From Escherichia coli (lineage in GTDB: Bacteria; Pseudomonadota; Gammaproteobacteria; Enterobacterales; Enterobacteriaceae): DNA of 64,000 nt. Numbering within the stretch: position 1 is the first letter of the stretch; each line of letters begins with the position of its first letter. Below are positions 40,001 to 42,648 of this stretch, piece after piece. The notes beneath the pieces were generated by a model. That model had not been told where the DNA came from and searched no databases. It saw only the letters and a list, made by a program, of their open reading frames with translations. The position numbers were made by a program, and so were the translations under genes. The stretch lies in assembly GCF_003334385.1 (NCBI RefSeq), contig NZ_QOWN01000013.1. The stretch is one strand, 5' to 3'.

Positions 40001-42648
40001 TCAGAACTTATATTTCAGGCCCACCATCACTGCGGTGTCATTGTAGCCATTATCACCCAGCTGCACGCCCACATTCCCCAGACGCTGGCCGCTGGATTCA
40101 GGTTGCCATTTACGCCAAGTTTAATTTCCCCCAAATTACTCGCCCCATCTTGTTCGACTTTCACACCGTTCATTGAGACAGCAAAATCTTTACTGTTATG
40201 GATCCAGTTCATTTCAACAAAAGGTTCAAAGTCGTCACCGTGCGGACCGCTGTTTTTCTCCTGAGTACGAATAAAGGTGCGGAAGCCGAGTCGGGTCTGG
40301 ATGTTGTTATTTGCGTCATTCTCAATACGTGAGCCATTGGCTTCCGTGTGCGCATTATGATCGACGCCCATCCAGATAGCCTGTGCCTGTGGCTGGAAGA
40401 TCCACGTATATTTCGCCGCTTCCAGACCAAAGGATTTATTCAGGGCAAAACCGTAACCCGCTTCCAGCGAGACGGTTGCACCTTTCGCGCTATAGGATTC
40501 ATAGGCTAATTCATCCCCTTTCACCGAGTTTTTAAACCAGCTATATTGCGCCCAGGAGTCAATGTATGCGCCTTTTTTACTGATGTCATCGGCAAACCAG
40601 GTGGCATACAGCCCTGCGCTATAGCCTCTGACACTCCCTTTCGAACGATAATCCGACACGCTGGAATGAGTTAAGTTGTAGTCGCGGGCATAACCAGCCA
40701 TCACTCCCAAACGCCAACTGTCACTATCGGTAAAACCACCGGTTAACAGATCGCCCCCTAACTGCGAGACGTAGCGATGCGAGGTCGTTCTCAACTGTCC
40801 GTTGCTGTCACGCCAGGCATTATGCCCGCCAATTTGACGTAGCCAAAGTCGGCTTGAACGCTCCTGTTCAGTTACAGGATCGATGTAGCGCGTTTCACCC
40901 GCACGGTCGTTCAGACGCATAACAAAAAGAGTGTTAGCAACTGCCAGGTTAGCGACGTAACTTCCAGCTTCGGGGCGCAGGACGGGGGTAGGCGTTTCTG
41001 TTGATTCTGAATTTCCCTCTGAGCTGTTATCCTCCTCATTCACTGACTGATAACTTGTCAAATACCAGTTTTTGCCTTGTTGTTTTAGTTGATATTCGAA
41101 AGCTCCAGCTGCAATCCTTGCATCACCTTATCTGAAGGCATCTGCTGGAGATTCATCGCCATTCACAGTTATGAGTTCGATCCCGTTTAGCGTGGCCGCG
41201 CCGCTTCCTCCAGCATTTTTCACATAGACGGTAGTTGAACCCGAAGTATTACCCTCAACAATAAGTCTGTCCGTAGCCGATTTATCATCACCTAATACGG
41301 TGCGGATATTAAGCTGACCATTATTACCGACATAATTACCTTTTACGGTTAATGTTTTTCCTTGGGTAAATGTTTGACCATCATCATACGAAAGATTGAT
41401 AATACTGTCTGAATTAGTCAGATGGGTAACAACGGAGTCATCTTTCATATTCCAGATTGTATTTTCTGAAAGCTTCAGCGTGGTTGTGCCGCTGACGAGT
41501 TTAGTCGCTCCATTTAGAATAGAGTCGGACGAAATTATGTTTAAGTCACCTCCAGTATTATTAACCAGAACATTATTACCAGGTGTGATAATACTTCGAT
41601 TAAGGATACTTACATCCGTTGTAGTTTTGTTAACATCAATACTATCCAAAGCACTTGAAAGTTCAACACTTAATAGTGCTATTTTGGCTTGAGAATCGAT
41701 ATTTGATGCATCAATTGATATTCCTTTATCTTGTTTTGATACCGCGGTGACATTGGAAAAAAATAACTCTCCACCATTGTATATTTTTGCAATGGGGGCT
41801 TTAGTGCCTGTTGTTGTAATAGAACTATTTTTTATATCAATGTTACCTTGTCGAATAGCAACTGCATAACTTCCATCAGCCACAGTTTCAAGTGCCACAT
41901 AATCTAAATTAATATATGCTTTTTTCCCATTAGCATAAGCACCATAGCTATTAATGCCATTAGTTGTTATGGAACCACCATTCATTTTTAAATCAGCACG
42001 GCTAATAACTTCGTAACTGTTAGAATCACTAACTTCATCATCTACAGCATCGACACATGTTCGAGACTCTCCAGGACTTGAACATGCAAGAACACCTACT
42101 GCATTTTCCCCAGAGGTAACAATGTTCGTTTTATCTGTGGTTTCAAGACGGGTGTTATTTACCATCTTTTCAGAATCATTAACCTGGCTTAAAAGTCCCG
42201 CTGAATATGCCCCACCCGACTCGACTGAATTATCACCATTCATAAAGATGGTGCCACCAAATTCACTGACTACTGCGCTGGCTGTTATCCCTCCATTTTC
42301 TTTGTCAGATACGCTTCCAGAGGTCTTAATATCGCTATCGCTTATATATAATACTTTGTTTTGACTATCAACAGAAATACCATAAGATCCATCACCACTA
42401 GTCATCACACTGGCATTATTTATATATCCAGTTACACCGTCATCCACTTTCACAGCATGGCTTTCGTCTTCAGTGGTTAGATACTCTCCATTACTTATCG
42501 GATTATTATCTTTGATTTCAATCGGCGATTCTTCATCAGTCATATAGGAAATTATACTATAATCATCCAACAATTGTGTTGCATATGCATTACCCACCGC
42601 CAGAGCAATAAGTCCCAAACTAAACCCGGGGAGTTTTTTCAGTTTCAT
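40001..42648 (-). pseudogene. ycgH: AIDA-like autotransporter YcgH, disrupted at multiple points
   Basis: Passenger fragment 41128..42648 (signal peptide MKLKKLPGFSLGLIALAVGNAYA) and beta-domain fragment 40027..41061 lie in different frames; the canonical C-terminus ...VGLKYKF* (stop 40001-40003) is in a third frame. Confidence 0.7.

Follow-up and report, generated by a model that had tools for sequence, protein, structure and literature searches.

Positions 40001-42648 of the window, the whole 64,000-nucleotide stretch of Escherichia coli DNA that was analysed, almost certainly hold the ycgH pseudogene of phylogroup-A E. coli, the decayed gene of a classical (type Va) autotransporter of the AIDA-I type, in which loss of one base from a run of G probably came first and an in-frame ochre codon, TAA507, later. 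The data examined contain no counter-evidence to pseudogene status, which is itself already known: the MG1655 copy, b4491, carries a pseudogene annotation in RefSeq, and the gene has long been annotated so in K-12. The window copy is identical to b4491 at 2,647 of 2,648 bases, with one substitution, and runs opposite to MG1655 numbering. Features of the locus, in window coordinates, are the following.

40001..42648, minus strand: ycgH pseudogene (MG1655 b4491), repaired length 882 codons plus stop, matching MG1655 1219601-1222248
42580..42648, minus strand: putative Sec-type signal peptide, codons 1-23, MKLKKLPGFSLGLIALAVGNAYA followed by TQ, from inspection of the translation
41757..41763, minus strand: poly-T tract, T7 with the frame kept; in other strains, where it is T8 or T9, a secondary hotspot for frameshifts, from alignment
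41086..41436, minus strand: autochaperone domain, residues 405-521, cut by the codon 507 stop (Pfam AC_1, E 2.5e-29, repaired protein)
41128..41130, minus strand: lesion 1, in-frame ochre TAA at codon 507 (CAA to TAA), from translation and orthologue alignment
40940, minus strand: substitution GCT to GTT, Ala570Val, absent from all 15 other sequences compared, including MG1655, REL606 and HS
40001..40848, minus strand: beta-barrel translocator, residues 601-860 and on to Phe882 (Pfam PF03797, E 3.3e-39)
40076..40079, minus strand: lesion 2, G5 to G4, a -1 frameshift at codon 858, from comparison with the closest flanking allele
40027..40029, minus strand: premature TGA that the shifted frame meets once 15 aberrant residues (MWACSWVIMATMTPQ) have been read, from translation
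40001..40075, minus strand: displaced last 24 codons and native stop (NVGVQLGDNGYNDTAVMVGLKYKF, then stop), from translation in the other frame and alignment to the 4MEE C-terminus

Over positions 1-50836 (50.8 kb) the window is separated from MG1655 by 12 substitutions and a single 1-bp deletion, and its source is, judged by sequence, a close relative of K-12 rather than MG1655 itself. The first 25 kb have no exact match among complete RefSeq genomes; non-K-12 isolates resembling phylogroup A match best, and SCU-104, although it has the ycgV deletion described below, is not identical. The e14 prophage is absent; icd (50672-51922, minus strand) is uninterrupted from window position 50836 onward.

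Translation of the minus strand gives an open reading frame of 506 aa at 41128-42648 and another of 344 aa at 40027-41061, exactly where a preliminary description of this DNA, made from the letters alone, had placed a passenger ORF and a beta-domain ORF. That description assigned the two to different frames. Their starts lie 42648-41061 = 1587 = 3 x 529 nucleotides apart, so they share one frame, and a translation in that frame from 42648 runs past the stop as ...NGDESPADAFR-stop-GDARIAAGAFEYQLKQQGKNWYLTSYQSVNEE..., the sequence around codon 507 reading ...PADAFR-stop-GDARIAAGAFEYQLKQQGKNWYLTSYQ.... Passenger and barrel no longer form one unbroken polypeptide, and what divides them is one TAA, in frame, at 41130-41128. 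The 344-aa ORF seems to begin at 41061 because the first TTG after the TAA lies there, and the apparent gap at 41061-41128 arises because the ORF listing restarts at that codon. Codon 507 is CAA (Gln) in every orthologue compared that does not belong to the K-12 allele group.

The frame of both large ORFs terminates in ...ASVWGMWACSWVIMATMTPQ, with its stop at 40029-40027, and the canonical terminus, ...GNVGVQLGDNGYNDTAVMVGLKYKF with its stop at 40003-40001, sits in another frame. The earlier observation that ...AVMVGLKYKF lies outside the frame of the ORF stopping at 40027 is borne out by translation, although the frame it occupies is a second and not a third, since the reading frames total two. 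With ...GLKYKF displaced, the in-frame product ends ...VWGMWACSWVIMATMTPQ and has no terminal strand with a C-terminal aromatic residue; both the terminal barrel strands and that residue are encoded in the displaced segment at 40001..40075. Around codon 858, O104:H4, whose flanks are identical to those of K-12, reads TGG GGG AAT and the window reads TGG GGA ATG; intact alleles read TGG GGT AAT at this site. Glycine is kept at codon 858, and residues 859-882 are replaced by the 15 aberrant residues. Because O104:H4 has G5 within K-12-identical flanks, lesion 2 is best described as the loss of one G from G5. Deletion of a T from GGT AAT was also considered, and was dropped in view of the one-gap class of 1,443 genomes and of the O104:H4 allele. 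Alignment to intact orthologues revealed no further frame-disrupting lesion in the window ycgH, and the sole other indel relative to the intact genes is an in-frame 15 bp whose state is common to the intact LR14 gene. The count of at least two frame disruptions in the preliminary description holds insofar as there are two lesions, but the correct description of ycgH is an ochre codon together with a deletion in a G run, and not two frameshifts.

Restoring CAA and the missing G yields a product of 882 aa, identical to intact LR14 at 857 of 882 residues (97% amino acid identity to intact orthologues). The repaired gene compared with LR14 gives a pN/pS of 0.23, a sign that most of the divergence between the alleles arose under purifying selection. 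The putative signal peptide, recognized by eye, has the basic n-region, hydrophobic core and A-Y-A motif of the Sec type. The passenger ends in an autochaperone, which besides AC_1 is matched by the Pfam model Pertactin (residues 426-531 of the repaired protein, E 7.8e-9) and by two structures of the IcsA autochaperone, 3ML3 and 5KE1. The barrel is found by the TIGR01414 domain model over residues 429-882 of the repaired protein (E 9e-110) and by the AIDA-I translocator structure 4MEE over the same residues (E 1e-76), the latter aligned to the last residue. Among NCBIfam models, no equivalog reaches its cut-off for YcgH, and only the generic barrel domain is returned. By these matches intact YcgH, at 882 aa, starts with the putative Sec signal peptide and continues with a passenger that is AT-rich and predicted to be beta-helical; the autochaperone and a linker then lead into an outer-membrane barrel of 12 strands, whose last residue is Phe. 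G+C content is 48-54% over the barrel, 34-43% over the passenger, and about 32% upstream.

An Rfam scan of 37500-44000 returned no RNA family, and a promoter and terminator scan found only a hairpin with a T-run at 39957-39981 on the plus strand. This element, a 9-bp GC-rich hairpin followed by the T-run, lies between the convergent genes ycgH and ymgD and reads as an intrinsic terminator for the ymgD/ymgG strand; on the ycgH strand an A-run precedes the hairpin and no T-run follows it.

Going by established autotransporter biology, each of the two lesions alone should abolish surface display. TAA507, falling inside the autochaperone domain, would uncouple the passenger from its translocator, and the G lost at codon 858 would replace the last 24 residues, which comprise the final strands of the barrel and the aromatic C-terminal signal on which barrel assembly depends. 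At most, a 506-aa fragment with a signal peptide would be exported to the periplasm, where its route across the outer membrane would be absent; the barrel fragment would have neither a signal peptide nor a proper start codon. From such fragments, we infer, no surface adhesin could be made.

For an allele survey, allele-specific short queries, built so that every 28-base megablast seed word spans the variant, were run against 5,426 complete E. coli genomes. TAA stands at codon 507 in 1,501 genomes, against 738 with CAA, and the codon 858 site is G4 (frameshifted) in 1,570, G5 in 1,443, and GGT-AAT in 1,952. The ycgH lesions are old shared alleles, found in about 28-29% of complete E. coli genomes. 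TAA507 and G4 occur together in REL606 (E. coli B) and HS, with the RefSeq flag "frameshifted; internal stop." The poly-T tract was counted with short queries in "distant" mode, taking the exact-identity class, as the megablast low-complexity filter would mask it; exact T7 is present in 1,935 genomes, T8 in 193, and T9 in at least two. The variants of this tract may mark it as a hotspot of slippage, or some of them may be sequencing errors in a homopolymer.

The eight K-12-type alleles that were compared differ from one another by no more than six substitutions, and all eight have G4. One subset (K-12, REL606 and HS) has TAA507, while another (EC5, YZ22PE67, 2017-19-1CC and CFIAFB20180511) has T8 or T9, with or without TAA311. 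Because G4 is shared and the second lesions differ, the G deletion is read as the probable founding lesion and the others as secondary hits, with TAA507 apparently a later one in the K-12/B/HS sub-clade. We infer this order from 16 aligned sequences plus the allele counts, rather than from a per-genome cross-tabulation on a phylogeny.

Other lineages have lost the gene by other means. In a sample of eight CAA-class genomes, only strain 103 has an intact ycgH, the remaining seven being broken by IS2, by different stop codons or by different 1-bp indels. Of the 12 genes sampled that lack TAA507, and so fall outside the K-12/REL606/HS group, 3 are intact. Strain O18 has only fragments of ycgH, and the annotated ycgH of O104:H4 has a late start, downstream of a separate small ORF. 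So many independent inactivations outside the K-12 group point to loss of the adhesin species-wide: on the sequences sampled, ycgH decay is recurrent across the species rather than specific to K-12. In about half of E. coli genomes the barrel is kept at 98% identity and the passenger is different or deleted, which makes ycgH a mosaic. Across the species the barrel is about 98% conserved; the AT-rich passenger, in that half, has either given way to another allele, named "ECIAI39_1904 family autotransporter adhesin," or lost a part of its length.

Variation in the two homopolymers raises the question of whether ycgH is a phase-variable contingency gene, switched through G4/G5 and T7/T8/T9 and here merely off in a revertible state. 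Variants of both runs do segregate in the population (G4 against G5, 1,570 to 1,443; T7 against T8, 1,935 to 193), and the alleles with T8 come from two or more divergent backgrounds. Against this, G4 is fixed across a clade that bears later lesions (TAA507, TAA311, T8/T9), which argues that no reversion took place; every T8 or T9 copy examined has another lesion; and slippage cannot revert a TAA. Runs of four to five G are, besides, short for slipped-strand switching. Nor does tract length act as a sole on/off switch in the 16-sequence sample, where each of the G4 alleles of the K-12 type carries a further lesion. We regard revertible switching of the window copy as very unlikely. A related conjecture, that poly-T is a true slipped-strand switch in strains whose ycgH is otherwise intact, making ycgH an unrecognised phase-variable autotransporter whose K-12 copy is locked off, is a long shot.

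A second alternative grants the lesions and supposes that the fragments work on their own, the 506-aa product as a periplasmic or secreted passenger, or passenger and translocator as a split pair. The 506-aa ORF does retain a start codon, a signal peptide recognized by eye, and a promoter region to which published surveys find RNA polymerase bound, as both sigma-70 and sigma-S holoenzymes, so that a truncated YcgH product may be expressed. One of those surveys enters ycgH as "pseudogene- autotransporter" and records a sigma-S ChIP peak at the 5' end of the gene (PMC4447067); another gives it a constitutive sigma-70 promoter with an H-NS mark (PMC3946193). Yet the barrel piece lacks a signal peptide and its last strands, the stop falls within the autochaperone domain, and sister alleles tolerate passenger stops and frameshifts (at codon 311 and in poly-T), which argues that no selection acts on the fragment. 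Production strains, moreover, have been built with ycgH replaced by expression cassettes (PMC11566304). A function for the fragments is extremely unlikely.

That the disruptions are sequencing or assembly errors in a truly continuous ycgH, as one lesion in a short homopolymer (G4/G5) and the possibility of homopolymer errors behind the poly-T length differences of some other assemblies might suggest, has practically no chance of being right, since a TAA substitution is no homopolymer error and the same alleles recur in 1,501 (TAA) and 1,570 (G4) independently sequenced genomes, MG1655, REL606 and HS among them. An artefact of a single reference-guided assembly pipeline is excluded by the presence of the alleles in independently sequenced strains. 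The continuous frame that the preliminary description had envisaged once sequencing errors were corrected does not materialise, the survey having established both lesions as real alleles. We return, then, to ycgH as a pseudogene with two genuine lesions.

The preliminary description had further called ycgH a disrupted AIDA-like autotransporter gene, had named two more broken autotransporter genes in the window, ycgI and ycgV, and had suggested from all three that selection is relaxed in this lineage. The first point agrees with the two independent inactivating lesions and with the pseudogene annotation, and the second also proves right.

38342..38685, minus strand: ycgI (b4521), 114 codons left over from the 3' end of a second autotransporter barrel (TIGR01414 positions 365-432), with a 1-bp deletion at about 38577
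6298..9164, plus strand: ycgV, with a 1-bp deletion, AGGC to AGC, at 8922-8924, from comparison with MG1655

The ycgI relic is present in O104:H4, where it is in frame, and in O18; its 1-bp deletions are independent, that of the K-12 type at about 38577 and that of O18 at a different site. The product of ycgV in the window has 879 aa and is truncated inside the barrel, against 955 aa for the intact MG1655 protein (b1202); with the G restored, the full 955 aa are recovered, ending ...GGYRFSF. The ycgV deletion is absent from MG1655 and occurs in just one of the 5,426 complete genomes (SCU-104, flagged as frameshifted in RefSeq); if not an error of assembly, it is a mutation both recent and private. 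The suggestion of relaxed selection is where the preliminary description fails, as the three defects differ greatly in age: the ycgH lesions are in about 1,500 genomes, the ycgI relic is old and is found in O104:H4 and O18 too, and the ycgV deletion is nearly private, so that no joint, lineage-specific relaxation follows. The three broken autotransporters should not be pooled as evidence for it.

For ycgH itself, the result has little import beyond annotation hygiene, and the locus is in routine use as a neutral integration site, chromosomal integration there having been described as being at a "pseudogene site" (PMC11566304).

Set beside known systems, YcgV (b1202) shares with YcgH both the AIDA-type autotransporter class and the chromosomal region and is grouped with biofilm-associated autotransporters (PMC9289746), but, unlike ycgH, it is intact at the tested site everywhere except in one of the 5,426 genomes. 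AIDA-I (4MEE; NCBIfam NF033176) aligns to YcgH through its autochaperone, linker and 12-strand barrel, including the C-terminal ...KY.F, whereas its passenger has no sequence relation to that of YcgH; YcgH scores 287 bits against NF033176 and so falls far short of its cut-off of 1,200 bits, and ycgH therefore encodes a protein of the same type and not an AIDA-I orthologue. Intact YcgH proteins are WP_122986825.1 (LR14, 882 aa), WP_000768550.1 (MLI121, 887 aa) and WP_001522908.1 (strain 103, 887 aa), which share locus and architecture with the window gene. All three have CAA at the equivalent of codon 507, and none breaks frame at codon 858; in MLI121 and strain 103, 15 bp are inserted in frame at gene position 351. 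The closest counterpart, K-12 ycgH (b4491), occupies the same locus, with ymgF upstream and ymgD/ymgG downstream in both; both copies carry TAA507 together with the G4 frameshift, which makes the window gene a member of the K-12 pseudogene allele, distinguished from b4491 only by the extra substitution Ala570Val (40940).
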